From positions 1-64,000 of IMG/VR virus record IMGVR_UViG_3300045998_000148: 64,000 bases of DNA; one strand, given 5' to 3'. The notes beneath the pieces were generated by a model. The model was not told the DNA's origin. It was given only the letters and a program-made list of their open reading frames with translations, and did not search any database. The position numbers and the translations under genes were made by a program. This stretch comes from a virus. Of the stretch, positions 5,455-32,352 are shown piece after piece. Position 1 is the first letter of the stretch. Each line of letters starts with the position of its first letter.

Positions 5455-6037
5455 CATTTTTGGCGGCGATCGCCTTAAAAAATTCGATTTGACGCAGCCT
5501 CTTTTTCGCTTCTTCCTCCGTCCCGTACTTGCCGAGGAGCTTGCCCTTGCGCGAAAAAATAGCGTATTGCGAGCCGACCTTGCGGATCGAATCGCAGTGC
5601 GGCTCGGGGGAACCCCACAGCGCCAGACATCGGCGAAAATGCGCGTCTTTCGACGCCATTACTTCAATGGCACTGGCCTTGCTAGCATCGTTGCGGGCAT
5701 CGAGAATCGCCCGCCGATAGTCGTAGGTATCGGGGTTGGGCGGCATCCCCAATTCGGCGATCGCTTTGTTAAGGGCGATCGCCTGAACCGTCTCTTTTGC
5801 CGCTAAGCGGATCGGAGCGGATAGGAGTTCTTCGCGGACGTATCGAGCTGGCAGAGAACCCTCGGCAGGTTCGCCTTCAACAGTCCGATCGCGCCCGAGG
5901 CGATCGGCTGGGCTGTCGGCTGGGCTGTCGCCTGGGAAGTCATCGGGAAGGGCTGGACTGAAGGAATGAATTTTGCCCAGCATTGCATCGAAGGGATTGA
6001 GCTTGGGCGTAGGTTTGGCAGGCATCGCAATTCTCAA
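5429..6037 (-). CDS. Hypothetical, probably head-associated protein
   Basis: C-terminal module IRKVGSQYAIFSRKGKLLGKYGTEEEAKKRLRQIEFFK, which I recall from phage head-associated proteins, follows an xxDS site; coupled to the upstream gene. Confidence 0.6.
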   Translation of the reverse strand: MRIAMPAKPTPKLNPFDAMLGKIHSFSPALPDDFPGDSPADSPADRLGRDRTVEGEPAEGSLPARYVREELLSAPIRLAAKETVQAIALNKAIAELGMPPNPDTYDYRRAILDARNDASKASAIEVMASKDAHFRRCLALWGSPEPHCDSIRKVGSQYAIFSRKGKLLGKYGTEEEAKKRLRQIEFFKAIAAKNAKARPPSP

Positions 6038-6723
6038 CCAAATTCGTAATAGCCGCCGTTGACCATGCCGCTAACCCGCACGAATTTTGCGGCATCAAGG
6101 GCATCCGTCCTTTTCTTTCTGGTCTTAGAAGGAGGCGTCTTAGGAGCCTCGCCAGAAGCCGTTTCCCGTATCACGTCCGATAGTTTTTTGCGGCCTTTCT
6201 TTTTAGATTTAGTTTCGCCCTTTTTCGCTTTAGACGATTCGGCGGCGGCGGTCAGCAGTTTTCTGTCTCCTGGGTTATTTGCGCTAACATCGCTCATCAA
6301 TTGCTTCCAATCTTCGTCAGATAAGTTTTCGCCAACAAGATCGCTCATTAATTGCGGCAAATCTTTGGCAGACAATGTGTAATATTCTTGCGCTCCCTTT
6401 CCTTTGGGTTCCAAAAGTTCTCCCTCGACGGCCTCTACTTGATTTTTCTTTTTCTTGCCGCCGCCGCCAGAAGTCAGGGCGCGTCCCGCCCCATAGCCCG
6501 CCGCCCCTACCGCACCGCCAACCAGCGTGGCAGCCAGCACCTTTTTAGCCAGTCCGCCCTTTTTGCCGCCGCCGCCTTCGCCGCTGCCGCCACCCCCGCC
6601 GCTGCCTTTGGGAAGAGATCGGTAATAGCCGCCGCCCTTCATTCCAGGTACTTTGACAAAAATCTTGTTGCCGATAATGGCGTCTTCTCGAAATTGTATT
6701 TTGGATAATATGCTGGTTGCCAC
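6034..6723 (-). CDS. GGYY-leader family protein (putative capsid cargo), small member
   Basis: REDAIIGNKIFVKVPGMKGGGYYRSLP leader, Gly linker, hydrophobic helix VLAATLVGGAVGAAGYGAG; RBS aggagg. Confidence 0.8.
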   Translation of the reverse strand: MATSILSKIQFREDAIIGNKIFVKVPGMKGGGYYRSLPKGSGGGGGSGEGGGGKKGGLAKKVLAATLVGGAVGAAGYGAGRALTSGGGGKKKKNQVEAVEGELLEPKGKGAQEYYTLSAKDLPQLMSDLVGENLSDEDWKQLMSDVSANNPGDRKLLTAAAESSKAKKGETKSKKKGRKKLSDVIRETASGEAPKTPPSKTRKKRTDALDAAKFVRVSGMVNGGYYEFG

Positions 6724-6744
6724 GATATACCTCCTATAGGCATT

Positions 6745-7167
6745 TCAAGAATGGGAACGACTGGGTTTTTGCATCGCCATCGCCGTGAGGCCGTCGCCAA
6801 GGAAGGCGACCTCGATCGCCACGCGAGAAAGAACGACTCGTCGGCTTTTGATAGTAAAACAATAGCGGCGGCAATTCGAGCAGGTAATTTCGCCATACAC
6901 CAACGCGCTTTCTCGATCGCGTTGCACGGAATGAATTTTTTCAATCTCGATCCCTAAAAAATCGTCTTCAATAACTGCCCTGAGGTACTCTCGAACGAGG
7001 TCGTCCTGAATGTCACAGTCGGGATTGGCGAAAAAGGATAAGGGATCGCAGTTGGGACACGAGGCATCGCGATCGGCATCGCGATCGGCATCGCGATCGG
7101 CATCGCGATGGGGAAGGGAGGAAGGATGGGGGCGGTCAGAGGGCAACATATCGACTTTTTCGCGCAT
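6745..7167 (-). CDS. Hypothetical Cys-containing protein, paralog of 7170-7487
   Basis: LVYGEITCSNCRRYCFTI vs IVYGELACTNQCRYFFSI; (RDAD)n encoded by a 12-bp repeat. Confidence 0.65.
   Translation of the reverse strand: MREKVDMLPSDRPHPSSLPHRDADRDADRDADRDASCPNCDPLSFFANPDCDIQDDLVREYLRAVIEDDFLGIEIEKIHSVQRDRESALVYGEITCSNCRRYCFTIKSRRVVLSRVAIEVAFLGDGLTAMAMQKPSRSHS
7063..7109. repeat. 12-bp tandem repeat ggcatcgcgatc x~4
   Basis: Seen directly; encodes RDADRDADRDADRDA on the minus strand. Confidence 0.9.
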
Positions 7168-7169
7168 TG

Positions 7170-7487
7170 CTATTTTTGTTCTTGCTCTTGTACTTCTACC
7201 ACTCTCCGCAACGTGGCGATGCTATTTTCAATCGAAAAAAAATAACGGCACTGATTGGTACAGGCCAGCTCGCCGTACACGATGTTTTTTTCAGCTTCCG
7301 GCATCAAATAAAAAAAGCCCGCTACTTTCAAAGGAACGAAGTCTTCCTCGACGACGGTTTTCACATAGGCTTGCGCCCCTTTCATCGCTTTTTGAAAATC
7401 TTCGTCTTCCCGCAGCTTGTAAAGCTCCTCTTTGAACTTGTCAAACTTCGGCGTATCGCCCGACCGCGAATCTTTTGAAGGAGGCAT
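7170..7487 (-). CDS. Hypothetical protein, paralog of 6745-7167
   Basis: Start overlaps the stop of the 1672-aa gene; shared VYGE(L/I)xC motif. Confidence 0.7.
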   Translation of the reverse strand: MPPSKDSRSGDTPKFDKFKEELYKLREDEDFQKAMKGAQAYVKTVVEEDFVPLKVAGFFYLMPEAEKNIVYGELACTNQCRYFFSIENSIATLRRVVEVQEQEQK

Positions 7488-10400
7488 TAGCTTGCTTGCT
7501 GTATTTTTCTGATTTTACCCGTATTTTGCGCGTTCAGTACGTCGAGGGTGCGGCTGGCCTCTGCCGTTACCGTTTTTTGGATGCCAAGGGTAGTTTCCAG
7601 CCCCGCCTTTACCTGTCGCGCCGTCCGAACCGCCTTCTTCGGCAATTCGGCATAGATTTTGCCGACTTCTTTAGCGGCGGCAGTAGCGTCGATTTCGCCC
7701 GACTTGTAGCGGTCGTAGACGCTGACGACATCGTTAGTCGTCGCCATTGCAACTACGGCTCCAATTCCCGGCGTGGGCAGGGGTATCGTGTGTTCAGCGA
7801 GCTGAGCCGACGCATTTCCGACGACCCAACCGCCGATATCTTGTTTTTTGACCTGCTCGGCAGCCGCAACGTCGCGGCGTTCGAGTTCGGCGATCGCCTC
7901 TTGGCGAAGCAGCTCTAATTTTTCAAGGCGTCCGGCCTGCTGGAACACGGGTTCGAGCTTGAGTTTGTCGTAAGCCGCCTTTGTCGCCTTAGCATCGGCA
8001 AACCCCCTGCGAATCGTGCGCGTGCCCATAATATCGCCAGCCAATGCCCCCGGCAAGCCGCCGATCGCGCCCCATTTGGCTCCATAAATGCCGCCCAGTG
8101 CCGCCGCCCCTTCTTCAACCAATTCGAGGCGACTCGGAACTTGCGTGCCGACCTGACTTGCCGCTTTGCGGGCGAGTTCCTCCCTCGCATTGCCCTCGTC
8201 GATCAATTCCTTGGTCGTGTCGTAGACAGCTTTCATGCTCGTGAGGAGCTTATTACGGACGATCGCCTCGCGCTGCGCCCCTTCCTTTTTTTGCTCTATG
8301 ATAATTTCGTCCTGCTGCCGCAAACCTTCTCGATAGCGCTCGACCGTAGCGCCCAAGACATCGCGGAACACATCTCTCTTTCGTTTCACCCGCAGCGTGC
8401 CGTCAGGCATTTCGACGACAGGCGAAAGCGCCTGCGCCAATTGACGAGCCGCTTTTTCGGTGCGTTCGTCGCCGCCGCCGACGACCTTCGCCCCCCTCTC
8501 TATAGCAGATTGGCTCGTTTCCGACAGCGCTTCCCTCGCTTTTTTTCGCACCGCTTCCGTGCCGACCACTTCCACGTTGCCGACGGAGATCGGCCTATCG
8601 GCTTCGCGAACCGCTGCAACCGCCTCGTCTTTAACCTTTTTAAGGGCTTCTTCTCGAACCGTTTTAAGGACTTCTTCTTTGACGCGATCTTTAACGCGAT
8701 CGGCGACAAAATCGGCAACTTTCTCGGGCGTACCTCCATCCTCTTCTGGATTGGGGTTCACATAGCGGACGGAGCGATAGGTTTTGCCGTCCTTGCCCTT
8801 GACGACTACCTCTTTGGCTACGAGGTCGGGGTCGTCTTTAAGGGCAGTTGACTTGCCGCCCCCGCCTGGTGCGGACTGGCGGGAAGCGGGTGGCTTGCCC
8901 ATTCGGTCGGCTCGCACGTTAAAGCCCCGAGCGGACGTAATCTTCCTGGCGAGCGCCTTGTTTGCCATCGGCAGCAGGCGGTTGAACTGCCTGTCGTCGA
9001 GGACTTGGGCAAGGGAGCGGTCTAATTTCGCTTTTAATTTGGGCAAGACGTCAACTTTTGGATTGGCCGATCGCTCCAGTGCAACGTCCCGAATGGCCTT
9101 TGCCCACAGGCGGTAGTAGGTCGATTCCTTGCTCTGGTGATAGGCGATCGCGATCTTGACTTCGTTTAACAGAGGGGATTCGCCTCTCGCGATCTGGCGC
9201 AGCGCCTCGTTCATCTTCTTTCGGATTTCGCCGATCCCCAACAGGAAATGCCCGCTTGACACTCCCGCCAGCACCCGTTCGACTTCAGCCTGATTGGAGC
9301 GTTCGTGCAGGGGATAGGCAATTTCTCCTTTAGGCAGGACGGGATAGGTATTGTTAATCGAAACGATCCGATCTACCAGGCGGCGTACAATTTTCGCCCC
9401 TTCCTCTTTTAGCCACTCGCGATCGCCGCCCGTCGTGACGCCCAACACGGCATCGCTACGGCGCTGCTTGCGCTTTCCGCGCTTGCTGTCGCCTTTACTT
9501 CGCTCGTAGATATTGCCGTTAAGGTAGACGTACTTGCCCTCATCGATAGCCGCAAGTCGGCGCTCTATCTCGGCCTCGAAATCGGCGAGGTGCTGGCGAG
9601 TATCGGCAAAGATCGTCTCCATGACCGTTTTTGCCTTGGCATTGGCGACCTCAATGCGATCGCCCTGGCGGATATAGTGATTGGCGTAGTTTTTCCGCAT
9701 TCGATTGGCAAGGCGTACCACGGGCTGCTTGCTGGCCTTTTGAATGCGCTTGAGGTAGTCGCGGTACTCTTCGACGGAACTAATTTGATTTGGCTCGAAC
9801 TTGGAACCTAACGTCATGTAATTGACGTAATTGCCGAGAGAGTCGGGACTGTAGGTTTTTGTCGCGTTTAAATTGAGAAAATCGACGATGCCCGCATATT
9901 TTGTCAGGTCTGCACCTCTCGGGTTTTGTGTCGGGCTGACGGCGGCCTTCATCACTTCCAGCAATTTCAAGGATTGAGCTTCTTCGGGGAAGCGTTTTTC
10001 AAATACCTTGTAGGTCTGCATTTCCTTCTCAAAGGGAGACATGGAGTTTGAAGTCCTAATTTCCTCCACCTCTCGCCTGAATTCGCCAAACTGCTTTTCC
10101 ACCGCTTCATAAATCGACATATCCTCGGCAGTTTCCGACTGTCGAAGTTTCCTCGACCGCTCCTGCGGGACGCCTGCCGGAGAGTCCGAAGTCCCCGACT
10201 GTCGAGTGCGATCGGCTGCGACAGTACCCGCCTGTCTCGCCTGTTTCTTTTCCGTGCCGGAGAGCCGATCTCGACTGGCGATCGTTTTCTGTCTCACCCC
10301 TTCAATTGCGTCGAGCTGTCGTTCGAGCATGGCAGATTCGCGAGTCCACTGGTCGAGAGCCTTGACGCGCACCTGCTGTCGGCCTGCCTCGGCGCTCATT

Positions 10401-19437: not shown

Positions 19438-19925
19438 TATTGCAGCAAATATTCTTCGAGCAAGTCGCGCATTGCTATCAGCGTGCGATCGGAAACGCCG
19501 AGCAACAATCGAACGGGTACGCCATCGCCCGTCTGGTGCTTGAGCGCCTTGGGGTCGGAAAAACCGACGCGCAACTCAGTCGGGCTGGCCGCGTAATTAG
19601 CCGAAGCCCTCATGTATCCCGTCCGCTGCAATATTTTGAGGATGGCTCCTTCCCGCCGCTTGCGCTCGATAGTCCAGGCCGAATTGGGACGCCAGGGGAC
19701 GCCAAACGGATCGGTTTCTTCCCGAAACTGATTGTCTATTTCGCCCAGCATGAACTCGCCAATCGCCTCTAACGGCTCCTGGCGATCGCCCAACCTGCGC
19801 TCTATTTCCTGCAACAGTTCGCTAACTTCGCGATTGTCGATATCTATTTGCAATACCACGACAAGATTTCCCTTTTTTTGAATCTTGCCGCAATAATACC
19901 GCAAAACAAGACAAGCTTCCCCCAA
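19434..19925 (-). CDS. Phage virion morphogenesis protein (Mu gpG-like)
   Basis: FREETDPFGVPWRPNS...ILQRTGYMRAS...KHQTG..VPVRLLLGVS; true start probably about 60 nt downstream. Confidence 0.85.
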   Translation of the reverse strand: MGEACLVLRYYCGKIQKKGNLVVVLQIDIDNREVSELLQEIERRLGDRQEPLEAIGEFMLGEIDNQFREETDPFGVPWRPNSAWTIERKRREGAILKILQRTGYMRASANYAASPTELRVGFSDPKALKHQTGDGVPVRLLLGVSDRTLIAMRDLLEEYLLQY

Positions 19926-20035
19926 AAAAACGCCAAGGCGTTCGGAGACAGAACGACTTGGCGAAAAACGCAGGAGAAATTCAAGAAAAAAGAAAGTGGC
20001 AGCCGTTTGCTAAACTGCCACGGGCTTACTCTTTG

Positions 20036-20383
20036 CTATTGAGACGAGGCAAAAGCACGCAGGCGAGCCAGCAACCGACTGACATCCTCGGCATCGACAT
20101 TGCCATCCACAAAATAATCCTCAAGAAACTGAAAGCCGACATCGGCCAATTCGTTATCGCGAGCCTGGGCGATCAGGGAATTGAATTGATCGAGAAGTAC
20201 GTCCGCTTTGCGGGCAATTGCGGGGGAAAAAGCATCTCCCATCGCGAGAAAAGCGGTCAGGACACCCGCCTTAACCGCGCCCACCGACGCACCCTGGCCG
20301 ACAGTAGCGGTAGCAGCAGCGACGACGCCAGCGGCGCTCTGAGCGGTATTGGCAATAGAATTGACGGCATTCATGACATTCAC
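20036..20383 (-). CDS. Hypothetical Ala-rich protein
   Basis: 115-aa ORF. Confidence 0.5.
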   Translation of the reverse strand: MNVMNAVNSIANTAQSAAGVVAAATATVGQGASVGAVKAGVLTAFLAMGDAFSPAIARKADVLLDQFNSLIAQARDNELADVGFQFLEDYFVDGNVDAEDVSRLLARLRAFASSQ

Positions 20384-20799
20384 GGCTTTTCTCGCTTTTT
20401 GAGAGTCTATTTATCAAGCCATAATAAAAACGAAAACGAGCTTTGATATCCGCGAAGGTACGCCTCTTGGGGAAAAAAGAAAAAGACTGTTACGCAATCG
20501 CCCTGAAAGAGGGGCGAGACAAGATCGAAAAATCGTGCTACTGTCTTCCTTGAATCACTCTGCGCTTTTCGCCGCTTTTCGCCATGCGGCGGGAAAAACG
20601 GAACATTGCAACTCCTTTTGTCTTTGCCCCCGATTTCCATTCTGGTCGGGGGTTTTTCGTGGTATTTTTGGGGCAAGGGTTGATCTCGGCGCAGCTATCC
20701 AAAATTTTTGGCTTTAGTTGCGTTGAGGCTTTCTACTTGTTCCTGCACCCCCGATTTCTATTCCGATCGGGGGTTTTCCCAATCGCAAAGGCAAATCAG

Positions 20800-21105
20800 G
20801 TGAAAATTTTCGCGATCTACACCACGCGGCGCACGACGCCCATTGTCGTCTCTGCCGAAGACCGCAACCACGCGATCGCGGTATCGCGCAAGCAATGGAA
20901 GCAAGGGTACGGCGCAATTTCCTCCGTACAGGAATTGAAGGACAAAGACGCGGCAGATGCGCGGGCGGGCAAGTGGGTACGCCGCAGGGAGTCGGGACTG
21001 TCCCCCGATCGCGGTACGGCTGCCGAGCGGCGGTCGGCGAGGCGGCAGCGATCGCGATACCGCCCGCAACTGGCGGAGAAATCGAAGCGGAGTCTCGAAA
21101 CTTGA
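20800..21105 (+). CDS. Hypothetical basic protein
   Basis: GTG start, 101 aa, Arg-rich; the ORF is open from 20584. Confidence 0.5.
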   Translation: MKIFAIYTTRRTTPIVVSAEDRNHAIAVSRKQWKQGYGAISSVQELKDKDAADARAGKWVRRRESGLSPDRGTAAERRSARRQRSRYRPQLAEKSKRSLET

Positions 21106-21117
21106 GCGAAGAACGAT

Positions 21118-21834
21118 TCAATCGTTCAAAATGCGCCGCATTTCGCGCTGTAGTTCGGGCGGCTGTCGCTCGATACCCTGTTCGACAAATTCGCCGCGCT
21201 GCCTCGCGTTAGAGATTCCGGCAGCGCGAGTGAAGGGCGGCTCTGCGATGGTGCGCCAGTCGGGGGGATCTTCCAATCGCAAGCCCATCCGTTCGATTTG
21301 ATTGCGGGTTAGCAATCGGGTAGCACAGCGGCAGAAATAGCCGCAGGGAGGCGCTGCCCGACGCCAGAATTCGGCATCGACTGGAAATACCTTGAGGTCG
21401 ATTGCCTTGTGATGGGGGCGAAAATCGGGCGAATCGCGATGGAGCCACTGCCTGCCGACAAACAATCGGCGGATATGGGGCTTATCCATCTGCGCGTACC
21501 TTCCCGCCGAATGCGACCGCCGCAGGTTGGTATCGAAAACCACGCGGAGGTGTCGATCGCGGAAGCGGTCGAGTACCTGTTGGCCGCCTTCGTCGGATTC
21601 GAGCAGGGTGACGAAGCTATCGTAGTCCGCACCGCCTTCGATGGCCGCATTGAGTACGCCGAACAGGTAATTAATAAAATCGGCGGAGGTCACGCCCGAT
21701 ACCGAGAACGCCCAGTCGTGGTATTCGCTGCCGACATTGCGGAGCGATTGGGCGGGCAGGGGAACGCGACGGCGCAAGAAATCGAGCTGTTCGGCAAAGG
21801 GTTGGCGGTAAAACTCTTCGGGATAGATCGGCAT
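21118..21834 (-). CDS. Phage Mu gpF-like minor head protein (MuF)
   Basis: WAFSVSGV, VFDTNLRRSHSAGRY, RPHH, FW...PPCGYFCRC. Confidence 0.9.
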   Translation of the reverse strand: MPIYPEEFYRQPFAEQLDFLRRRVPLPAQSLRNVGSEYHDWAFSVSGVTSADFINYLFGVLNAAIEGGADYDSFVTLLESDEGGQQVLDRFRDRHLRVVFDTNLRRSHSAGRYAQMDKPHIRRLFVGRQWLHRDSPDFRPHHKAIDLKVFPVDAEFWRRAAPPCGYFCRCATRLLTRNQIERMGLRLEDPPDWRTIAEPPFTRAAGISNARQRGEFVEQGIERQPPELQREMRRILND

Positions 21835-21846
21835 TTTGTCTCGACT

Positions 21847-22035
21847 TCAATGAGTGCCACTGCGCGGCTCGACGCGGGTGGGATATTTGTTTTGCCCCCT
21901 GAATTTATCGACGGGATGGGGAAAATACCTTCGATAGACCCACCAATCGAATGCGCCCAGGCAATAATGAAGGACGATCAGCAAGAGGAAGGCAAAGATC
22001 GCGAGGCGAACGAGTTGGCGATCGTTTGGATGCAA
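21847..22035 (-). CDS. Small membrane protein
   Basis: One transmembrane-like stretch LAIFAFLLLIVLHYCLGAF; lies in the operon between tape measure and MuF. Confidence 0.55.
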   Translation of the reverse strand: MHPNDRQLVRLAIFAFLLLIVLHYCLGAFDWWVYRRYFPHPVDKFRGQNKYPTRVEPRSGTH

Positions 22036-22056
22036 GACAAGAGCAAGTGGGAAACA

Positions 22057-25000
22057 TTAAAGTATCGCCGTCTTGGACAAATTGAGGGCCGTGTCTAATA
22101 TTTGAGAGAGGTTATCGGTAGGTCTGGCCGCTACGGAGCCGCGATCGCCTCGAATTGTCACCTTTGTATCTTTTTTTGCTACGGTCGCCTGTTTTAGGGC
22201 GTCCGTGAGGGCTTTCATGCTGGTATTGAGAGTATTGATATTGCGGTTGAGAGTTTCCTGTGGGCTGACCGTGGGGACGGTCGAGGGCACGCCAGCTCCG
22301 AATTGAGGCAATCCCGCAGGCCGCTTGACCTTTAATAAGTTTACCCCTTCTTGGATCGGGACGGGAGCGGTCGCTTCTGCCTGTAGTCGGGAACCAATGC
22401 CCGAGTAAAGAGGCCCATAGAGATTCCTGGCCTCGCGTTCTTTCTTGCGGACAACTCCTTCAAAGAGGCGCGGATTGTAGATGCGGCTCAAGTCCTCCAG
22501 CTCGGGTGCAATTTCGAGCAGGCCGCGATCGATGCGGCGAGGGGCGGCAGGACTTGGAGCTGGAGCGGGCGGAGCGGAAGGCGGCGGCTGTCCGGGTCGG
22601 AAAGAGACGATATCGTTAGCGCCCGTCCTGCCCGACAGGATATTAGCCTGGGTCTGGGCGACGAGCTGACGCCCTGCCGAGCGCAAGCCTCCCGTTCCGG
22701 CAAAGCCCAATTGAGCGGCAGCCCGATCGCCGAGCTGTTGAAAGAACTTGCGCTGCTGGTACTTGCTGGGCAGCGCTTCGCCAAATTGCACTTGAGCGCC
22801 CAGCCGCCCTGCCTGCTGGTTGATTAGAGTCTGCTGTCGTTTCTGGCCGAGGATTTGTGCCTGGGCGTCAAAACTCTGCTCGTCGAGGACGGCTCGCTGC
22901 CGGACGAGATCGATCTTTTGCGTCTGAGCGTCCACCTTCTGAGTGAGCGCCCCGATCAGGGCGGCATTGGCCGCTTTCTGCGGGTCGGCAAGGGCGGTAG
23001 CGAGTTCCGATTGCGCGTCGATCAGCCCCGACCGAGCCTCTATTTCCGCTACCTGATTGGCGATTTTCTGTTTCTCGCGGGCGATCTCAAGGGATTTTTC
23101 CTCTAATTTCAAATTTTCAAGCTGAGCCGCGTATTCCGTCTCCAGGGCATCGAGCTTGATCGCAGCAATCGTGGCGGCCAATTCCTTGCGCTCTCGTTCG
23201 GTGCGAGCGCCCTTGTCGAGGACGCCAAACTGCGCTTCGAGGAGCGATACCTGAGCCTTAAACGTCTCCAGAATGGCATTGGCGACGTCTTGCGTATTTT
23301 TAACCTTGGCCGTCTGCACGTCGTAGAGCGCCAGAATTTTTTCGAGTTCCGCCCTCGTCGCCTCGATATTGGTCTGGGCGATTTGCCGATCGCGGGCGAT
23401 AACGGCTTGGGCGGCCTGTATTTTATGGGTCGTCTCCAATTCCGCTTTTTTCAGCTCGTTTACCTGGATCTGCCGTTCCAGGGCGCGAACTTCAGCATCG
23501 TTTTGGGGGGCGATCGCGTTAGCTTGCAGGTAGCGAATGCGCTCGGCGAGCAATGCCCGAGTCTTTTCGAGTTCGACGTCGATCTGCGCCGTCGCGACCT
23601 TCCCTTTCTCTTTGATGGCGGTAATTTCATCTACCTTGCCGCGCACTACCGCCAGACTGAGCGCCTGTTCCTGCAATTTAATGTCTTCTAACTGGTCGCC
23701 GTACTTCTTCGAGATCGCCTCGTTAATGGCCTCCAGCGCCTTCTGTCGCTGTTCGGGTTCGACGTTGAGGGCAACCGATACCTCGCGCATTTTCTCGATA
23801 AATTCATCGCCACTAGCGATGCCCACGGCAAAGGCTTTTTGATAGTCCTGAATCAGGCGGTCGATTGTCGCCTTAAAGCCGCCCGACTGGGACTCCTCTC
23901 CCTTGGCAAAAGTCTCGTCGATGCTTTTTAGCTGCGTGCGGAGCTTGTCGCCCGCCTTGCCAATTTCGGCGGCCAGTTGGTTGCGCTGGATCGTACCCGT
24001 CGCCTGTTCTTTTAACTTGTCGTTCTCTTCGGAGAGGGCGTTGTTTTCCTCTTGAAGGGCTTCTCTCTGGGTATCGGTCAGGCCGAACAGGGAAGAAAGC
24101 CCGCGCTTGCTGCCCGCTACCTTCTTCTGCGCCTCTACATACTTGGTAAACTCATCGGTTGCCGCAATCCGCAAATTTATTTCGCGGCGCAATTCGCTTA
24201 CCTTCTGCCCCTGTTCCCTCGATTCTACGAGCCGTCCGTCCCGGTAGAGAGTATTGTACTTTTCCTGTTCGGCGGAAAGCTGCACGAGCAGCCGCGCCGT
24301 CTTGTCGCCATAAGCCCCCGTTTTAGGCGCGGAGACGGCCAAGATCGATGCGTTGCGCGTTTTTTCAAGGGCTTCTATTTCGGCAGCGAGGCTGTCGTAT
24401 TCCTTGGAATTGGGGGCGGCATCCACCAATTTCTTTCGCAGTTCGCCGAGCTGGTCGGTAACGCCGATCGCCTGCTGCACCTTGGGCGTCAGGTCGGCGA
24501 TGTCGCCGCCGCTTTTTTCAAAAGCCTGCCGTTCCTTCCGCAGTGCGTTAGCTGCGGCCAGGGTATCGATGGAGCTGGTAAATGCCTTTTCAGACTTATT
24601 GCCGCCGAGCAGTTCCTTGTTCTGAGCGATCAGGATTTCGTTAAATTCGATCTGTGCCTGTGCCTGGGATAGTTTCTGGCGGTTGCGCTTTAGCTCCTCC
24701 TCGGAAAGGGCAATCCCACTTTCGAGTTGTTTGGACTGCGCCTCATTTAACTTCTCGACCTCCTCGCGCAATTTTTGAGTCCGTATTTGCTGGATGTCGA
24801 GCTGGTAGCTGATATCCTCGAAGACCTGAGTATTGACCGATTCGCGTACTCGGCTGTAGATTGCCGCCGCCGCCGCGATCGCCCCCATTATCAGCAGGAG
24901 CGGGCCGAATGCCGCCCATAGTTGGGAGACGGCCAATTTCAAGCTGCCCAGGACGGGGAGCAAGCCGGAGAATGCCCCGGCGAGCTGGGTCTGCTTGAGG

Positions 25001-28000
25001 GCGGCAAAGCGGAGTTGCAGTGCGCCCGACTGGATGCCCAATGCCTTAAAGCTGTTGTCCAACAGCAGGGTACTGACAGCGGCTACCTTCTGCGTCAATC
25101 CGAGGCTGGCAATGCCGATGCTCAATCGATTAAAGGCAAGTGCCGTCTGACCGCAAATAATACCGACGAGCTTCACCGCTTCGCCGTAGAAAGCGGCGAT
25201 CGCCCCAGATATTGACATCTTCTGCGCCGAGGCCGCCGTCGCATCGCCGAGAGCTGCCGAACTCGCCACCGCCGCCGCCTGTTTCTGACGGAACAGGTTG
25301 AGCGTACCGATGTATTTCTGCATATCTTCGGCCAAGAGGCTGAACGCCGCCCGCACGTTTGCGAGACTCGCGCCACTCAAGCCGAAGATACCGATCAGCA
25401 AGCGAAGCGCCGCTGCTACCCGACTCGTCACGCCCGTCAGCCCCGTCAGTATGGCCGTGCTGACAAAAGCGCTGCGGTTAAAGGCGATGAGGCCGACCGA
25501 CAGTATGGCGAGTGCGCTATTGACCGCGCCAAAACTCTTCAGCGCGTCGATAAGGACGTCCACTGCCGACTTGACGATAGAGAGGAGGTTGCCCAACACC
25601 GCGCCAATCGAGTTAAATGTCTCGACAAGGGACTCGTTGCCCAGGATGACCTCGTTAATGATGCGGGCGGCGAGGTAGAGAGCAGATCCCCAGAAGGCAA
25701 TGCTGATGGCCTGAGAAGCGAGTGTTTCCCCGACCTGGCGCAATATCTTGTTAAACGTCTCTGTCAGCAGCCCTACTGTCGTCATTTGCGCCTTGCTTGC
25801 CCCGAGCTGACTCGCCATATTGGAGGCAGAAGCAGCGATCGCGTTCATCCCCGCTCCCAGGATGGGGACTTGGGCGATAAACTTGTTGCTCGCAATCGCG
25901 TTAAAGGCAGCGCCAATCGCGCCTAAATTGCGGGCGGGACTGGCCTGCAAGATCGACTCGAAGCCCGCCCGCAGCGGCGGGAACAGGTTGATAAGAGCTA
26001 TCCCCTGCACGGAAAGGGAGGCGACGGTAGGAATCAGCCCAGTCAACATGGCGGAGAATGGGCCTGCTATGGGCAGGAGAGACTTCTGCACGGCGGCAGC
26101 CAGTCCGGGTATTGCCTGCAAGTTCTGACCGAGCGTGAGGAAGCCAGCGCCGCCTCGCTGGAGCTGGGGGAATAAGGTCGCAAACGTCGCGAACATCCGG
26201 TTTGCCCCCAATTCCGTAGCGAACAGCAGTTCGCCGACGATGGGCAGCGATATGGCAATGGATCTAAAGGAAGTGGCGAGCAATTGAATTCCCTTTTGCA
26301 AGACAATCGCCTTGACCGCCACCCCCAAAAAGCCGCCGCCGACAGCGCGAACGAAGCCGACGAGCCGACCCATGAAATCGACAAAGGGCTGCAAGATCTC
26401 GACGGTAGCGTTAATGCCATCGGCGATCGCGCTTAGGAAATTGCCGAAGCTCTTGGCGAGGTAAGCCGGGATGCTGCTCGAAACGGGCAGGAGAGAGGCA
26501 AACGCATTTTTGATGGCATCGAACAAGTCGAGGACGCCCGAAAAAATAGCCGTGGAAACCTCGGTGAGGCCGCCGACAATTTGTTTTTTGACGAGCCGAA
26601 CCAAATTGCCCGTCTTGCCGATCGAGAACTCGGTCAATCCGTCGAAGACCTCGCCCAACCGAGCGACAATCGGCTCGATCAGGCCGCGCCCAGCGGCGAG
26701 CGCTGCCGTCTCAATCGTCTCGACAATATTGCTGTACTGGCCGCCGATGCTCTGCGCTGCCAATTTGTTCGCCTCTTTAAATCCGGCGAGGCGCTTGGTC
26801 AGTTCGGCAACCCCCGTATTCTGCGCCTTCCACTTGGCGATCATTTCGTTGGAAATGTTAAGAGTTTTGGCGAGTACGCTATTCTGGTCGATCGTACCCG
26901 TCAAGATACTGCCTATTTCCTGCCGCGCTTGGAAAAGCGGCAACCCGATCGCGCCCAGCGCTGCCGTAAAATCAACGGTCAGTGCCGCCGACTCGCGCAA
27001 GCCGCCGCCAATCGAGGAAATGCTGTTGTTGACGACCTGGAAGACCTCGACCAATTGGGAGGAGGTGACGCCGACTAACTCCAGCGACTCTTCCCGGATC
27101 TGTTGCAGCGCACTTCGCACGGGGCTAGCCAGAGCGGAGACGGCATTAATGCTTGTCAGGGCAATAGCATCGCCCTGACTGTTGGCACTGGTAACGAGCG
27201 AATTAAAAGTGCGCGTCGTCGAGGCGATCGCCGACTGGGTGGCGAGGAGCTGTTGGTTGAGTTCTTCGTTTTGACCGATCAGCAATCGAATCGGCCCTGT
27301 ACTGACAATCTGCTGGATGGTGGCAAATCCGCTGCTGATAAAGAAGATCTGCTGTCCCACGTTAGCCAGCACGTTAGAAGCCGCGCCGAGGCCGCCCATG
27401 ATGCCTTGAAATACGTCGAGCGGTTCGGACAGCCCCGCCATATATCCGGCTGTTTGGGAAATAAAGCTCAAGGGGGCAATAAACTTGCCTGGTAAACTCT
27501 CGATCGTGCCGAGGGTGTCGATGATTGCCGACTCAATGCGATCTAAAAGGGGCGTCATCTGTTGGAACAGCCGATCGCCAAAACCCTGCACGAATGAATC
27601 CCGCGCCCTCTCGCCCAACTCGTTCATCGACGAACTGAGCAATCCGCCGAGCCGATCGTCGATTGCCGTAAACTGTCCTTCCAGAAGGGTACTCGCCCGT
27701 CCCATCGCCTGAATTATTCGATCGCCGATATCGTCTGGGATCAAATCCTTTATTCTCTGCAAGAAGGCATTGTTCGCCCCAAACTTCTCTACCACTTGAC
27801 GGACGGCATTGCCGACCTGATTGAAAGCACTTGCGAACTTCTGCGAAAACCCCCTGACGTCGAGGCCAAAAATGCCTTCAAACGTCTTGGCTAACGCCTC
27901 CAGGGGTTGCGTGCCACTCAAAAACTCATCCCTTGCCGCCTGCAACTTCGCGATCTCGGCGCGAACCTGACCCAGCAAGGCAATGTCTTCATCCACCACG

Positions 28001-29964
28001 CCCGTCGCGCCGCCTCGAACGACCGGAACCGTATTAATATTGCGGGCAATATCTTGTTGTAATTGCCGCTCCCTTTTTTTTAAAAAGTCGATGGCCTCTA
28101 CATTGATGTTTAGCCGCTCTTGCAGCCTTTCCTTTTCGGCTCTGATGCTTTCGCCGTCACCCTTGCCGCCCTCGGGCAACTTTTCAAGTTGGGCGAGCCG
28201 ATCCTTTATCCGCCCTTCATTGGTCAGAAAAGCCTCGGGAATTAAAATATCGTTGACGCCCGCGACGACTTTCTTAAACCCCCCAGTCCAAGACTCTTTC
28301 AGTTGGTCGAAGGGGAGGAACTGCCTGAAGTTGTTATAAATCAACTGTCCGACAGCAGGCAGTCGAGAAACAAACTGCCCCTCTAATGCGTCAATAGCGC
28401 GAGAGGGCACGCTCTCAAACTGGGTTTCGAGGGATGCCGACAGGTCGATTAATTGATTGGCAATCTGGTTTTTTATGAAATTGACGGGAAGCAAGTCTGC
28501 ACTCGCGAACTGAGAGCGCAAGCCGGACTGCAATCCGGTTGCAATACTGCCTCCCACCTGTTCGCGCAACAATACATCTATGTTTTCCCGGCCTTCACGC
28601 GGCTTATAGCGTTCGATGCGCTGCAATGCCCTGCGCGGGTCGAGGACGGCGGCAAGGCGATCGCCCATCAGGTTGCGGGGAAGCAGGGCAATGGCAAGCT
28701 GATTGGCGAGGTCGGGCTGTCCGACAAAATTAATAAGCCCGCCCGCAAATAACTTCCCTGCCTGATAGCCTTTTTCCGTGACGGCAGCACTGGCTTTATT
28801 GAACAGGCTTTCATAACCTGCCTGCAAGAGGGAAATGCTCGCACTAGAGGCCAACTGCGATGCCGTTTTCGAGAGCGCAGCTCTAATGGGTTCATTGATA
28901 TTGGCGATCTGGCCGCCGAGTCCTTCCCCCTTTCGCGCTTCGGCAATTAAAGTTTTTAAAGCTCCCGATTCTACCAGTGCAATCCGACTGGCATCTGTCA
29001 GTTGACTGGCAATCACCTTTTCCAAGGCCGTTCCCGACAACTCGCGATCGAGGACGGAAAGCAATTCGCTCGATGTCTTTTTAGCAAAATTGGCCAACTT
29101 TTCCGATCCAAATGCCTTTGTCGCCGCAGAGACTAATTTTTCGCCTTGCCTGTCTATAAAAGCAGTGGGATCGGGAAAGATATTGGCGATAATCGCTTTT
29201 TGACGGGCTACAAAATTAGACGCCCCAGACACATCGAGCGCCTGCTGGTATTTCAGCCGCGCATCGGCGAGCAACTTCTGACGCTGTTCAATTTGGCCTT
29301 GAAGTCGTCGGTTTTCCTCTTCTAAAGGAGATTTGCCCTCCTGCGGGCGATCGCGATTGCGTTTCTGCGCGATTTCAAAATCAATTTGCGTCCTATTCCT
29401 GCTGCCTCCCCCTGCGATTAAATCGTCGAGAGTGCCGCGCCTTGCCACTTGCCGATTGAGGGCAATGCGAGCCTGCAAATTTGCGATAGAAGATTCAATT
29501 TTCTGTACCGCCCTCTGAGCCTTAAAAACTTCCGGCTCGACGGGAGCTAGATTGCGCTTTATCTCGCCACTAAAGCCCTTAAAAATTTCGCGGCTGATGC
29601 CAAACGTCTCGCGCAAGCCAGCACTCAGCTTGCCCGTATCGCGCAGGAATTTGGTTTGTGCCAACTCGTTGAGGGTGGCGAGGACGGTCGTTCCTCCTAC
29701 GTCTGTCTGCAAGACGGAAACCATTTCTCGGAGGGCGGAGGTGGTCGTCCTAACCCCGAGTAGCGTCGTACTCGCCCCAATCGACGTAATGTTGCGCGAC
29801 AGGGAGATCGCCTCGCTCGATACCGACGCAACCGCCTTCGTCAGGGCTTCAACACCCTTGGTAACGAGGCGAACGCCAGGAGTAGCGCCATCTTTTGTCT
29901 CCAGTCGAATCTCGATTGGATTGTTGCGAAAACTGCCTGCCCTTGCCCGCCCGCCCGTTGCCAT
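22057..29964 (-). CDS. Tail tape measure protein
   Basis: 2635 aa, helical and Ala/Leu/Gly-rich, central hydrophobic block, C-terminal coiled coil, N-terminal IEIRLETKD. Confidence 0.85.
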   Translation of the reverse strand: MATGGRARAGSFRNNPIEIRLETKDGATPGVRLVTKGVEALTKAVASVSSEAISLSRNITSIGASTTLLGVRTTTSALREMVSVLQTDVGGTTVLATLNELAQTKFLRDTGKLSAGLRETFGISREIFKGFSGEIKRNLAPVEPEVFKAQRAVQKIESSIANLQARIALNRQVARRGTLDDLIAGGGSRNRTQIDFEIAQKRNRDRPQEGKSPLEEENRRLQGQIEQRQKLLADARLKYQQALDVSGASNFVARQKAIIANIFPDPTAFIDRQGEKLVSAATKAFGSEKLANFAKKTSSELLSVLDRELSGTALEKVIASQLTDASRIALVESGALKTLIAEARKGEGLGGQIANINEPIRAALSKTASQLASSASISLLQAGYESLFNKASAAVTEKGYQAGKLFAGGLINFVGQPDLANQLAIALLPRNLMGDRLAAVLDPRRALQRIERYKPREGRENIDVLLREQVGGSIATGLQSGLRSQFASADLLPVNFIKNQIANQLIDLSASLETQFESVPSRAIDALEGQFVSRLPAVGQLIYNNFRQFLPFDQLKESWTGGFKKVVAGVNDILIPEAFLTNEGRIKDRLAQLEKLPEGGKGDGESIRAEKERLQERLNINVEAIDFLKKRERQLQQDIARNINTVPVVRGGATGVVDEDIALLGQVRAEIAKLQAARDEFLSGTQPLEALAKTFEGIFGLDVRGFSQKFASAFNQVGNAVRQVVEKFGANNAFLQRIKDLIPDDIGDRIIQAMGRASTLLEGQFTAIDDRLGGLLSSSMNELGERARDSFVQGFGDRLFQQMTPLLDRIESAIIDTLGTIESLPGKFIAPLSFISQTAGYMAGLSEPLDVFQGIMGGLGAASNVLANVGQQIFFISSGFATIQQIVSTGPIRLLIGQNEELNQQLLATQSAIASTTRTFNSLVTSANSQGDAIALTSINAVSALASPVRSALQQIREESLELVGVTSSQLVEVFQVVNNSISSIGGGLRESAALTVDFTAALGAIGLPLFQARQEIGSILTGTIDQNSVLAKTLNISNEMIAKWKAQNTGVAELTKRLAGFKEANKLAAQSIGGQYSNIVETIETAALAAGRGLIEPIVARLGEVFDGLTEFSIGKTGNLVRLVKKQIVGGLTEVSTAIFSGVLDLFDAIKNAFASLLPVSSSIPAYLAKSFGNFLSAIADGINATVEILQPFVDFMGRLVGFVRAVGGGFLGVAVKAIVLQKGIQLLATSFRSIAISLPIVGELLFATELGANRMFATFATLFPQLQRGGAGFLTLGQNLQAIPGLAAAVQKSLLPIAGPFSAMLTGLIPTVASLSVQGIALINLFPPLRAGFESILQASPARNLGAIGAAFNAIASNKFIAQVPILGAGMNAIAASASNMASQLGASKAQMTTVGLLTETFNKILRQVGETLASQAISIAFWGSALYLAARIINEVILGNESLVETFNSIGAVLGNLLSIVKSAVDVLIDALKSFGAVNSALAILSVGLIAFNRSAFVSTAILTGLTGVTSRVAAALRLLIGIFGLSGASLANVRAAFSLLAEDMQKYIGTLNLFRQKQAAAVASSAALGDATAASAQKMSISGAIAAFYGEAVKLVGIICGQTALAFNRLSIGIASLGLTQKVAAVSTLLLDNSFKALGIQSGALQLRFAALKQTQLAGAFSGLLPVLGSLKLAVSQLWAAFGPLLLIMGAIAAAAAIYSRVRESVNTQVFEDISYQLDIQQIRTQKLREEVEKLNEAQSKQLESGIALSEEELKRNRQKLSQAQAQIEFNEILIAQNKELLGGNKSEKAFTSSIDTLAAANALRKERQAFEKSGGDIADLTPKVQQAIGVTDQLGELRKKLVDAAPNSKEYDSLAAEIEALEKTRNASILAVSAPKTGAYGDKTARLLVQLSAEQEKYNTLYRDGRLVESREQGQKVSELRREINLRIAATDEFTKYVEAQKKVAGSKRGLSSLFGLTDTQREALQEENNALSEENDKLKEQATGTIQRNQLAAEIGKAGDKLRTQLKSIDETFAKGEESQSGGFKATIDRLIQDYQKAFAVGIASGDEFIEKMREVSVALNVEPEQRQKALEAINEAISKKYGDQLEDIKLQEQALSLAVVRGKVDEITAIKEKGKVATAQIDVELEKTRALLAERIRYLQANAIAPQNDAEVRALERQIQVNELKKAELETTHKIQAAQAVIARDRQIAQTNIEATRAELEKILALYDVQTAKVKNTQDVANAILETFKAQVSLLEAQFGVLDKGARTERERKELAATIAAIKLDALETEYAAQLENLKLEEKSLEIAREKQKIANQVAEIEARSGLIDAQSELATALADPQKAANAALIGALTQKVDAQTQKIDLVRQRAVLDEQSFDAQAQILGQKRQQTLINQQAGRLGAQVQFGEALPSKYQQRKFFQQLGDRAAAQLGFAGTGGLRSAGRQLVAQTQANILSGRTGANDIVSFRPGQPPPSAPPAPAPSPAAPRRIDRGLLEIAPELEDLSRIYNPRLFEGVVRKKEREARNLYGPLYSGIGSRLQAEATAPVPIQEGVNLLKVKRPAGLPQFGAGVPSTVPTVSPQETLNRNINTLNTSMKALTDALKQATVAKKDTKVTIRGDRGSVAARPTDNLSQILDTALNLSKTAIL

Positions 29965-29976
29965 TGAGGAAGCCGC

Positions 29977-32352
29977 CTATCTGTAGAGTTTGCGAAGGTA
30001 ATTCAATACATCGGCATTCGCCATGTACGATCGGGTCGCATCGCCGACGCCATCGATCTCGTGAGCGCCCGTCTTCTGAGGAAAGACGCCGAAGCGATCG
30101 TTTGCGCCGATGAGCGACAGTTCCGCAAGTGGCGTCCCCGCTTCCGCCATGCCGAAAGTAGGCGTCGAGATCGTCGCGAGCCGAAATTGCTCCATGATCT
30201 TCTGTGCCTTGGGTACGCCGTGGGTCTTGACGAGGGATTGATAGAGGATGTCGTAGGACACCCGTGCCTTAATTCCGGCATCTTTAGAGGCGAGCATCGC
30301 AATACGGCGGTTCGGCCTCGATTCGATATTGTCGGAAAGGGCAAACAGGTTGGCCGCCAGTCGAATAGATTCGGGATCGACGGGTTCGGTATCGACGGCA
30401 CTCAGTCCCAAATTGCGGCGAATGGCAGCGCCAAACCCGTCAATCGAGATGTGCTTGAAACGCTCGTCCTTGCTAAATGCACTCGCTCCAAAGGGGGCGT
30501 CCGCTTCTTTAATGCCGAATTCGGAGGCGACGGAAAAAAACTTAGTCATCCCGCCTGCTAAATTGCCGCTCTTACTCGTCCTGCCCTTGAGCCGATCGCC
30601 TTCGGGAATGCCGTCGAGCAAGTCTTCGTCTTTCTCCCAAGTACCGCCCATCAAAAAAGTGAGGTTGTTCTGCTTTTCCTTCTTTATCGCGTCGAGCTTG
30701 GGCTTGTTCAGCTTGGCGGCCTCGGCGAGGGCGAGGTCTGCCGCATTTTTGACATTCTCCTGGTATTTCTTGTTGGCAGCGGCGTATTCCTTGGGGCTGA
30801 GTCCCGTTACCGTACTGCCCGCAAAGAGGCGGTAGCTGGCCTTGTCGCCGAGAGCCATTTCTTTTAACTGCCCGACGCGATCGAGGAACGTATTGAGCGA
30901 GGGGTTGTAGCGTTCGGTAGCCTCATCCAACTGCTTTTGCAGCGCATTGCTGCGGTTGGAGATGCGGCTGGAATAGTAATTTAAGCCCTCGCGCAACTTG
31001 TCGCGCACGTCTCGATTTTTGAGGTAATCTTCGGCCTCGCCGCCCATTACCGATGCGATCCACTGCGGCTTTCGTTTCGGCATCCAGCTAGCCGGATCTT
31101 TGGCGCTCGTAACGGTGCGGTCGTTGACGTTGCGCCAGATACTCGGCGTATCGGCCACGCCAAAGGTAGGACTGCCCAACCGCACGAGGTTGATGCGCTC
31201 GGTAATGCTGAGGCCGCCCGACGCGCTGCGATCGGCTTTTTTCATCCGCCCCAGTATCTCGATCGCCTCGTTGGAGATGTTGCCGCCGACGCCGTGGGCG
31301 ACGATATTTAAGGGCTTGTCGGGATAGCGGTTGCCATAGGCGTAGAGCTGCGCGGCCAGGTCGATAGCCGCATCGCTGCGACCCCGCACGATATTGTTCG
31401 TGATGTAGCCTTTAATCCGATTGTTTATCTGGTGCGCCAGGTGGAAGGGGTTGGGCTTGCCGTTGAGCCACTTAGCATTATGGGGAGAAAGGTCGGAATC
31501 CTCGTCCGGGTTTTTAAAAGCAACGACGTGATTGCGCTCGCCGAACCAATTTTCTTCTTCCGAATTGTCCGTATTTTGCAGCAGCATCTCCCGCAACCGA
31601 TCGCCTTTAGAATTCTGAGAGCCGCCGCCGCCAACGGCAAACAAGATATTTTCCTTGCTCGTCGTATCGACCTGCATTTGCTTGGCTCTTGTCAGGGCGA
31701 TGTCGGCAGACTCCTTGAAGCCGTCGCGATGTCGCGACTTGGCCTGCTCGTACTTGGCGGCAGTAAAGCCGATAATGCCCGCCGCCAACAGGATACCCGC
31801 TCGCTTGGGATTGGCAGAGACGATCTTCTGCAACTTAATTGCCAGCCGCAGATCTTTTGCCGCTCCCTTGGGCAGCGAACTCAAGACGGCAGTGCGTTCC
31901 TTGCGGCGGCGCTCTAAAGTCTTTCTAAAATTGCGCTCCTCTTCGGGATTGCTTTCGACTAATTTAATCTGCCGAATTAACTGATCTTTGGTAAGGTGAT
32001 TGGCGCGATAAATTTGTTTTCGCGAGGCGATCGACTGCAACTCGCGGATCGAACGGTCTTCGAGCTTGCTGCCGCCCGCCTTCACGCCTTCGGGCAGCTT
32101 GCGCCAGTAACCGCCGCCCTTTACGCTCGGATCTCTAACGTACACTTTATCGCCGCGCCGCAAAGCCGGACGGCTATCTTGGTGCGCGTTCCCTAGCGCC
32201 GTGCGACGGCGCGGGGTCGCACCGCTATCTTGGTGCGCGTTCCCTAGCGCCGTGCGACGGCGCGGGGTCGCACCGCTATCTTGGTGCGCCGCCGAGGGTT
32301 TCTGGGCAGTTGAGGGCTTTAGACTTGCTTGCATTGGCGCGATCGTGAACAT
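29977..32352 (-). CDS. GGYY-leader protein with Rho-N-like domain and two degenerate alpha/beta-hydrolase-like domains
   Basis: GDKVYVRDPSVKGGGYWRKLP leader; LEDRSIRELQSIASRKQIYRANHLTKDQLI (Rho_N-like); LNIVAHGVGG and LVRLGSPTFG (lipase elbow lacking Ser); second copy LATISTPTFG. Confidence 0.7.
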   Translation of the reverse strand: MFTIAPMQASLKPSTAQKPSAAHQDSGATPRRRTALGNAHQDSGATPRRRTALGNAHQDSRPALRRGDKVYVRDPSVKGGGYWRKLPEGVKAGGSKLEDRSIRELQSIASRKQIYRANHLTKDQLIRQIKLVESNPEEERNFRKTLERRRKERTAVLSSLPKGAAKDLRLAIKLQKIVSANPKRAGILLAAGIIGFTAAKYEQAKSRHRDGFKESADIALTRAKQMQVDTTSKENILFAVGGGGSQNSKGDRLREMLLQNTDNSEEENWFGERNHVVAFKNPDEDSDLSPHNAKWLNGKPNPFHLAHQINNRIKGYITNNIVRGRSDAAIDLAAQLYAYGNRYPDKPLNIVAHGVGGNISNEAIEILGRMKKADRSASGGLSITERINLVRLGSPTFGVADTPSIWRNVNDRTVTSAKDPASWMPKRKPQWIASVMGGEAEDYLKNRDVRDKLREGLNYYSSRISNRSNALQKQLDEATERYNPSLNTFLDRVGQLKEMALGDKASYRLFAGSTVTGLSPKEYAAANKKYQENVKNAADLALAEAAKLNKPKLDAIKKEKQNNLTFLMGGTWEKDEDLLDGIPEGDRLKGRTSKSGNLAGGMTKFFSVASEFGIKEADAPFGASAFSKDERFKHISIDGFGAAIRRNLGLSAVDTEPVDPESIRLAANLFALSDNIESRPNRRIAMLASKDAGIKARVSYDILYQSLVKTHGVPKAQKIMEQFRLATISTPTFGMAEAGTPLAELSLIGANDRFGVFPQKTGAHEIDGVGDATRSYMANADVLNYLRKLYR
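32173..32288. repeat. 51-bp hairpin element family A variant with swapped inner stem, x2.3
   Basis: Inner stem gcgccgt-gcg-acggcgc replaces ggcgagg-nnn-cctcgcc. Confidence 0.9.

Follow-up and report, generated by a model that had tools for sequence, protein, structure and literature searches.

The hairpin module and its host genes

The IMG/VR virus record IMGVR_UViG_3300045998_000148 comprises 99,877 bp and is estimated to be 88% complete. Its first 64 kb (positions 1–64,000, hereafter the window) encode a recurrent G-G-Y-Y module of 25–30 amino acids (aa), of which translation revealed five clear copies and one degenerate copy in four minus-strand genes, P0001 to P0004 (Table 1). With a leader-only hidden Markov model (HMM), the clear copies scored 37–55 bits each, and their coordinates agreed with the original prediction, which had been made from the DNA letters without database searches. 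When the whole 99.9-kb record was scanned for the motif in all six frames, no additional clear copy appeared. An R-x-D-A tetrapeptide stands at the start of four clear copies and of the degenerate one and is absent before the copy in P0004, so the earlier count of four leaders after such a site was correct. The three closest copies share 68–73% DNA identity with synonymous differences at 5–14 of 30 codons, which argues that the peptide has been kept by selection and that these are old copies rather than products of a recent DNA duplication. In an AlphaFold model based on a six-sequence alignment, two strands were placed over V-x-V-K and Y-Y-Y-R (residues 24–28 and 34–38 in copy 2) with a predicted local distance difference test (pLDDT) score of about 82, and the module is referred to below as the hairpin. 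The subtype in the window is mostly G-G-Y-Y-Y-R-A-L-P, and that of most relatives is G-G-G-Y-W-R-K-L-P.

The record belongs to a CL131/PaV-LD-like cyanophage. The DUF2184 capsid protein, the DUF2213 protein, the DUF4054 protein, the large terminase, and a giant tape-measure-like protein all have distant homologues in Aphanizomenon phage CL131 and Planktothrix phage PaV-LD. In addition, the octamer GCGATCGC, the HIP1 signature of cyanobacterial hosts, occurs 92 times in the window versus 4.7 expected. P0004 lies inside the head-tail block, directly upstream of the tape-measure-like gene.

Each clear hairpin is followed by a Gly/Ala-rich helix and then by cargo that differs among the genes. The LRAT domain of P0003 matched PF04970 with 31.7 bits (cut-off 24.3, E = 2e-7) and contains the H-Y-A-V-Y and N-C-E-S-F motifs. 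The lipase fold of the P0004 cargo was assigned via relatives with DUF676, Lipase_3, and Abhydrolase matches. In the lipase-like unit of P0004 (30973–32052), the nucleophile elbow reads G-H-G-V-G-G and contains no Ser, as in its closest relatives; a Ser of the G-H-S-x-G-G type is kept in units 1 and 2 of CL131 open reading frame (ORF) 048 and in the family protein P0088. With such a Ser-less elbow, the unit probably has no serine hydrolase activity. The 60 residues preceding the P0004 hairpin are encoded by a perfect 51-bp tandem repeat (32173–32289, 2.3 copies, 100% matches), and the database gene model of P0004 (P0005) begins right at the hairpin.

P0002 has two heads with different tails and is a polyprotein like those of relatives. 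Its kinase-like unit contains a catalytic-loop motif, and the match to PI3_PI4_kinase (PF00454) was sub-threshold (E = 0.11, 12.9 bits versus a cut-off of 27.1). A single homologue was found, with D-R-x-x-G-N and I-D-M-G motifs in common; the unit had no match in the PDB, and its AlphaFold model (pLDDT 37) was unfit for a fold search. Among the cargo labels first proposed, LRAT was therefore substantiated, the lipase fold was upheld via relatives with its Ser missing, and the kinase-like label proved weak. No embedded peptidase was recognized in the window's own hairpin proteins. The C-terminal Gly-zipper-like region of P0002 (7487–8400) resembles the tail of the CL131 portal polyprotein in character, with no significant alignment between them, and a 24-bp in-frame tandem repeat of 4.1 copies lies inside the gene (10782–10880).

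Table 1. Features of the window and of the loci compared with it. Positions are those of the window unless a locus handle precedes them.
Feature	Coordinates	Strand	Basis or remarks
Hairpin copy 1	6601..6690	-	P0001 residues 12-41, starts R-E-D-A; HMM 55.5 bits
Hairpin copy 2	12374..12460	-	P0002 residues 16-44, starts R-L-D-A; HMM 37.3 bits
Hairpin copy 3, internal	11075..11161	-	P0002 residues 449-477, starts R-R-D-A; HMM 37.6 bits
Hairpin copy 4	13908..13994	-	P0003 residues 4-32, starts R-I-D-A; HMM 40.7 bits
Hairpin copy 5, G-G-G-Y-W subtype	32080..32172	-	P0004, no R-x-D-A before; HMM 50.4 bits
Degenerate sixth copy	6037..6111	-	C-terminus of P0001, after R-T-D-A; sequence alignment
Gly/Ala-rich helix after copy 1	6493..6540	-	Kyte-Doolittle 1.79
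Gly/Ala helix after copy 2	12242..12292	-	Hydrophobicity scan
Gly/Ala helix after copy 3	10919..10969	-	Kyte-Doolittle 2.15-2.19
Gly/Ala helix after copy 4	13716..13760	-	Hydrophobicity scan
Gly/Ala helix of P0004	31756..31800	-	Kyte-Doolittle 2.07
P0001, 229 aa	6034..6723	-	Hairpin, Gly-rich linker, Gly/Ala helix, basic low-complexity tail, degenerate C-terminal hairpin; translation
P0002, 1672-aa polyprotein	7487..12505	-	Two hairpin-helix heads, kinase-like unit, coiled coils, C-terminal Gly-zipper region; translation, HMM
P0003, 505 aa	12486..14003	-	Hairpin, helix, LRAT/NlpC-like domain (about 13242-13616); Pfam
P0004, 791 aa	29977..32352	-	Hairpin, Rho_N-like helix-extended-helix motif, helix, two Ser-less lipase-like units; homologues
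DUF2213 protein, presumed head maturation protease and scaffold	36853..38610	-	10 R-x-D-[AS] sites versus 0.8 expected
Major capsid protein (DUF2184)	34670..35866	-	3 R-x-D-[AS] sites within residues 1-78; conserved core after R-L-D-S 75-78
Capsid-core sites			Window R-L-D-S 75-78; CL131 R-M-D-A 9-12; PaV-LD R-L-D-A 9-12; L005 H-Y-D-A
2635-aa homologue of CL131 and PaV-LD tape measure proteins	22057..29964	-	E 5e-96
Stand-alone MuF-like minor head protein	21118..21834	-	Sequence match
Swapped portals	L008:2062-5895 versus L028:3801-7982 (CL131 ORF012)		Breakpoint at x-D-S junction
Knuckle loci	L027; L029		L027, CL131 ORF047/048; L029, PaV-LD ORF061, 065, 079, 080, 081, 085

A previously undescribed family

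The module constitutes a real, previously undescribed family, as had been suspected when the leader was first noticed. Pfam gave no match over the module even at E values up to 1, and PHROG matches fell elsewhere in the proteins. The first leader-only profile search retrieved the window's own proteins and two metagenomic ones, one with an InPase domain followed by the module and a P0004-like tail, and the other with the module, a helix, and a J-domain. The first search of a library of 1.84 billion proteins was run with a profile of 244 positions that included DnaJ columns from one full-length row; J-domain proteins made up most of its 915 matches, and use was restricted to rows that aligned with profile positions 3–47, among which new family members were still obtained. 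A cleaner 12-row profile led to 41 proteins. HMM analysis of the collected proteins, about 40 in number and originating from metagenomes and viral contigs, located about 50 occurrences of the module, for which the family consensus is [RK]-x-G-[HYN]-x-W-V-x-D-x-x-V-K-G-G-G-Y-W-R-K-L-P-K-G. True instances were additionally found on eight IMG/VR contigs and five metagenome contigs, and one cluster member bears the label Synechococcus phage MAG.

Other searches were negative. The ESM Atlas gave nothing usable for the leader, and neither a leader searched by tblastn nor P0003 matched any GenBank phage. The pattern K-G-G-G-Y-W-R-K occurred at 13 places in 185,579 species genomes, all of them chance matches; given how narrow the pattern is, this speaks only weakly for absence. 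In IMG/VR, the pattern G-G-Y-Y-Y-R-x-L-P gave only three chance matches and D-P-S-V-K none, and scans with a single protein, either P0004 or the capsid protein, gave no match.

Architecture of the cargo cassettes

As read from the protein sequences, the cassette opens with a hydrophobic/Arg-x-Asp-Ala/Ser site, after which come a basic aromatic β-hairpin, a short linker, a Gly/Ala helix of weak hydrophobicity, and the cargo. A hydrophobic 15-mer was located within 130 aa after the module in 43 of 50 instances (86%, median distance 27 aa) against a background of 34%, and Gly, Ala, Ser, and Thr made up 50–70% of these segments. In the lipase class, the module is followed by a Rho_N-like helix-extended-helix motif, with a Pfam match in P0013.

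Pfam annotation of the 41 members revealed DnaJ in nine, portal in seven, InPase in six, LRAT in five, serine esterase/lipase in a few, and MuF with Hint in one. The notion of swappable cargo was thereby corroborated, the module heading DnaJ, LRAT, lipase-like, HExxH-motif, and coiled-coil cargo recurrently across the family. The order of elements is also variable, running portal, module, helix, and DnaJ in P0159; portal, InPase, module, and helices in P0177; and DnaJ, module, helix, LRAT, module, and helix in P0156. P0019, P0155, and P0011 each contain two or three module-helix-cargo units, and P0088 combines a hydrolase, LRAT, and a lipase. The module is repeated in each unit of P0002, P0011, P0019, P0155, P0156, and P0088.

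Cassette swapping at the portal and the link to virions

The portal protein of locus L008 and that of CL131 are 93.5% identical over 847 aa and diverge exactly after a conserved W-N-R-E-S-x-x-D-S junction. Beyond this junction, the CL131 protein continues with a MuF-like region, whereas in the L008 protein the module comes next and leads into a Gly helix, then a Glu/Lys coiled coil, and then an HExxH-motif domain. In a second related portal, the match to CL131 (GenBank) ends at residue 849, by its module at residues 848–871. Cassettes have thus been exchanged behind a closely similar portal. The stand-alone MuF-like gene of the window aligns with residues 940–1214 of the CL131 portal polyprotein. 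On L007, a portal-module gene precedes, in this order, a further module gene, a MuF-like gene and a morphogenesis-like gene (labels that reflect sequence resemblance only), and a module-DnaJ gene. The gene order of L005 is as in the window, with DUF2213, capsid, and connector genes followed by a module-bearing P0004 orthologue. Co-occurrence of the hairpin with DUF2213 was seen on one further contig, L005, most hairpin contigs being 7–25% fragments.

The P0004 cargo aligns with CL131 ORF048 at three places, and ORF047 holds the same kind of unit; both ORF047/048 and P0004 lie directly upstream of a tape measure homologue. In CsCl-purified CL131 virions analyzed using liquid chromatography–tandem mass spectrometry, ORF048 was detected with 105 peptides (54.6% coverage) and ORF047 with 14 peptides, and ORF049 and the 1393-aa portal ORF012 were likewise detected (PMC6293099 Table S5). 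Homologous cargo is therefore present in the virion of one relative, and the supposition that this class of cargo is virion-associated gained support from both the portal/MuF fusions of relatives and the purified CL131 particles.

CL131 ORF047/048 contain a Lys-rich Cys4 knuckle after R-x-D-A or R-x-D-K, followed by a Gly/Ala helix and a lipase-like unit, in at least four repeats. In PaV-LD, the knuckle variant stands after R-x-D-A in six proteins (ORF061/065/079/080/081/085) with no adjacent helix. The PaV-LD knuckle proteins also share an N-terminal β-rich pro-region, roughly 100 aa long, with R-x-D-S and R-Y-D-A at its end. P0088 has hairpin-headed and knuckle-headed units within one protein, and no Cys4 knuckle leader was found in the genome studied here. 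The knuckles of CL131 and PaV-LD and the presence of both heads in P0088 indicate that two different small basic modules fill the same slot.

A putative processing site upstream of the module

The DUF2213 proteins are 10- to 20-fold enriched in R-x-D-[AS] sites, with 10 in the window versus 0.8 expected, 11 in L005 versus 0.5 expected, and nine in PaV-LD. The capsid protein of the window contains three such sites in its first 78 residues versus 0.14 expected over the whole protein, and in four phages the conserved capsid core starts directly after an x-D-A/S site (Table 1). A D-[AS] dipeptide was present within 33 aa upstream of the hairpin in 27 of 38 non-redundant instances, a count that omits five Y-Y-Y-type copies, all starting with R-x-D-A, against a background of 24.5%. 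A hydrophobic/Arg-x-Asp-Ala/Ser site stands before the module in about 85% of instances. Several exceptions to D-[AS] have D-T, D-N, or D-R instead, or carry the module at the very N-terminus.

The PaV-LD DUF2213 protein is annotated as a head maturation protease. Considering the shared motif, the DUF2213 protein may cleave after Asp in the cassettes, and the earlier suggestion of a protease site before the leader holds to the extent that R-x-D-[AS], plausibly cut by DUF2213, precedes the module. Anything between 0 and 13 residues may separate the x-D-[AS] site from the module, and this variable spacing speaks for two separate elements. As the predicted cut lies upstream, the module would stay on the mature protein.

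Proposed role and competing explanations

With middling confidence, the module is proposed to head, in conserved form, the exchangeable cargo cassettes of proteins that CL131/PaV-LD-like cyanophages carry in the virion. The head protease would cut these proteins, and the hairpin-helix would act after cleavage, in ejection or membrane anchoring. In the proposed pathway, the proteins would enter the prohead as polyproteins, as portal or InPase fusions, or as separate head-module proteins, following which the DUF2213 maturation protease would cut after Asp and free each cargo with the hairpin and helix as its new N-terminus. At infection, the proteins would exit with or ahead of the DNA, and the hairpin-helix could then insert into the membrane or anchor there, so positioning the cargo at the host envelope. 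A broader version, rather doubtful at present, is that the hairpin (or Cys4 knuckle) and the Gly/Ala helix form a general portable translocation-insertion signal which, once exposed by the protease, leads any attached protein through the portal/tail channel and into the membrane of the host. In that case, the cyanophages would have a plug-and-play system for delivering proteins, with the protease site as the exact point of recombination between cassettes.

Several observations weigh against a head for virion-borne, membrane-anchored cargo. P0001–P0003 lie outside the head-tail block, beside primase and Gp157 genes. Neither a portal (PF06381) nor an InPase was detected across the 99.9-kb record, which is estimated to cover 88% of the genome; the portal gene may lie in the missing 12% or be too diverged for detection. 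The virion evidence comes from a relative, CL131, whose detected proteins carry the Cys4 knuckle where the hairpin stands here, and the literature search found no published cleavage specificity of DUF2213 proteins. As to the helix, it is missing in 7 of 50 instances, and the small-residue hydrophobic helices anticipated after each leader of the window turned out to be rich in Gly and Ala and marginal in hydrophobicity, with best 15-residue Kyte-Doolittle means of 1.7–2.2. Moreover, J-domain and kinase-like cargo would need the cytoplasmic side.

The original prediction regarded the hairpin itself as a capsid-targeting signal that binds scaffold, capsid, or portal and loads any protein carrying it. 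This would account for the placing of the module, which in one phage lies at the N-terminus or close to it in proteins that are unrelated and in relatives is found in head-module genes and beside portal genes, and the Cys4 knuckle holds the same place in proven virion proteins. However, the module is kept even where the cassette is covalently joined to the portal, it is repeated in each polyprotein unit though a single tag would suffice, and it co-varies with the helix and not with any capsid gene. It also follows a conserved site and would be retained after the cut, unlike the T4 targeting peptides to which it was likened, an analogy that fails on this point. Because the module persists in portal fusions, recurs in every polyprotein unit, travels with the helix, and would stay on the mature protein, a role in anchoring or ejection is ranked above that of a packaging tag, which is considered fairly unlikely. 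The strongly basic and aromatic character of the module would also suit a small nucleic-acid-binding element by which the cargo is tied to the packaged genome, condensed together with the DNA, and released with it. Its interchange, in CL131, PaV-LD, and P0088, with a Cys4 knuckle rich in Lys points the same way, as does the Rho_N-like motif that follows in the lipase class. Yet the module matched no known DNA-binding family, and the tight coupling to the Gly/Ala helix would be left unexplained; this explanation appears quite improbable.

Another possibility is that the proteins are not virion components and are instead made during infection as membrane-anchored factors, for instance for DnaK recruitment or lipid remodelling at the cytoplasmic or thylakoid membrane, with the hairpin as a juxtamembrane domain. 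The proximity of P0001–P0003 to replication genes would fit, and a J-domain with a membrane anchor recalls DjlA of Escherichia coli. The portal, InPase, and MuF fusions among relatives speak against it, as do the detection in virions of P0004 homologues at the same gene position and the lack of a true match to the narrow pattern in the species genomes, and it is rated marginally lower still than the nucleic-acid-binding explanation.

Relation to known systems

Capsid targeting in phage T4 relies on a short N-terminal element on unrelated packaged proteins that is coupled to cleavage by the prohead protease and removed by the cut. In contrast, the module described here would be retained, since the predicted cut lies upstream, and occurs internally in polyproteins; the motif, protease family, and helix differ as well. 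The ejection proteins gp14–16 of T7 and gp7, gp20, and gp16 of P22 are located inside the capsid, possess hydrophobic helices, exit via the portal, and become inserted in the envelope of the host. No sequence relation to these proteins was seen, and they are not known to carry a common head on swappable enzymatic cargo.

The nearest relatives by lineage are the knuckle proteins of CL131 (ORF047/048) and PaV-LD (ORF061/065/079/080/081/085), whose phages share DUF2213, DUF2184, and DUF4054 and in which R-x-D-A likewise precedes the leader. CL131 ORF047/048 further share the position upstream of the tape measure, the lipase-like cargo, and the Gly/Ala helix, and are virion components. They differ in having the Cys4 knuckle in place of the hairpin, and the PaV-LD versions lack a helix directly after it. 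In the literature consulted, neither set of knuckle proteins is described as a leader family.

In concept, the nearest match is with the polyvalent proteins, and effectors fused to portal or MuF, that Iyer et al. 2017 described (PMC5512222). Polyvalent proteins likewise combine several unrelated effector domains in one polypeptide, lie among head genes, and are fused to portal, MuF, or InPase; their packaging, injection, and processing into units have been predicted. Unrelated effector domains, at least two to a polypeptide, were found here in P0156 (DnaJ and LRAT), P0088, and P0159 (portal and DnaJ); in the window itself, the association with portal, MuF, or InPase is one of neighbourhood only, given by P0004 in the head-tail block and by the MuF-like gene. 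Iyer et al. described InPase and portal fusions and few polyvalent proteins in cyanobacteria, and made no mention of DnaJ, LRAT, or transmembrane segments (PMC5512222). Unlike those proteins, every unit here opens with a common hairpin-helix head, and processing is predicted to be carried out by the head protease at x-D-[AS].

Phage effectors borne by the particle are known, and how diverse cargo becomes deliverable is poorly understood. In the present family, J-domain, LRAT acyltransferase, lipase-like, and metallopeptidase-like cargo are tied together by a single module that has no name so far, by a protease motif that is predicted, and by a defined junction for recombination. This yields a candidate cleavage rule for the uncharacterized DUF2213 protease, a candidate tag for delivery or anchoring, and a list of candidates for proteins that these bloom-associated cyanophages inject as they enter the cell.

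Small genes and tandem repeats in the window

Two small paralogous ORFs of 140 and 105 aa (6745–7167 and 7170–7487, minus strand) are located between the genes of the 1672-aa and 229-aa proteins and have a V-Y-G-E ... C-x-N ... R-Y motif block in common. A 12-bp in-frame tandem repeat of 3.9 copies at 7063–7109, in a small ORF, contains GCGATCGC and encodes a D-A-D-R run. Another in-frame tandem repeat, with a 15-bp unit in 12.7 copies, occupies 17644–17833. In addition to the array preceding the P0004 hairpin, a second 51-bp in-frame tandem array lies within coding sequence at 32888–33000 (2.2 copies, 95% matches).

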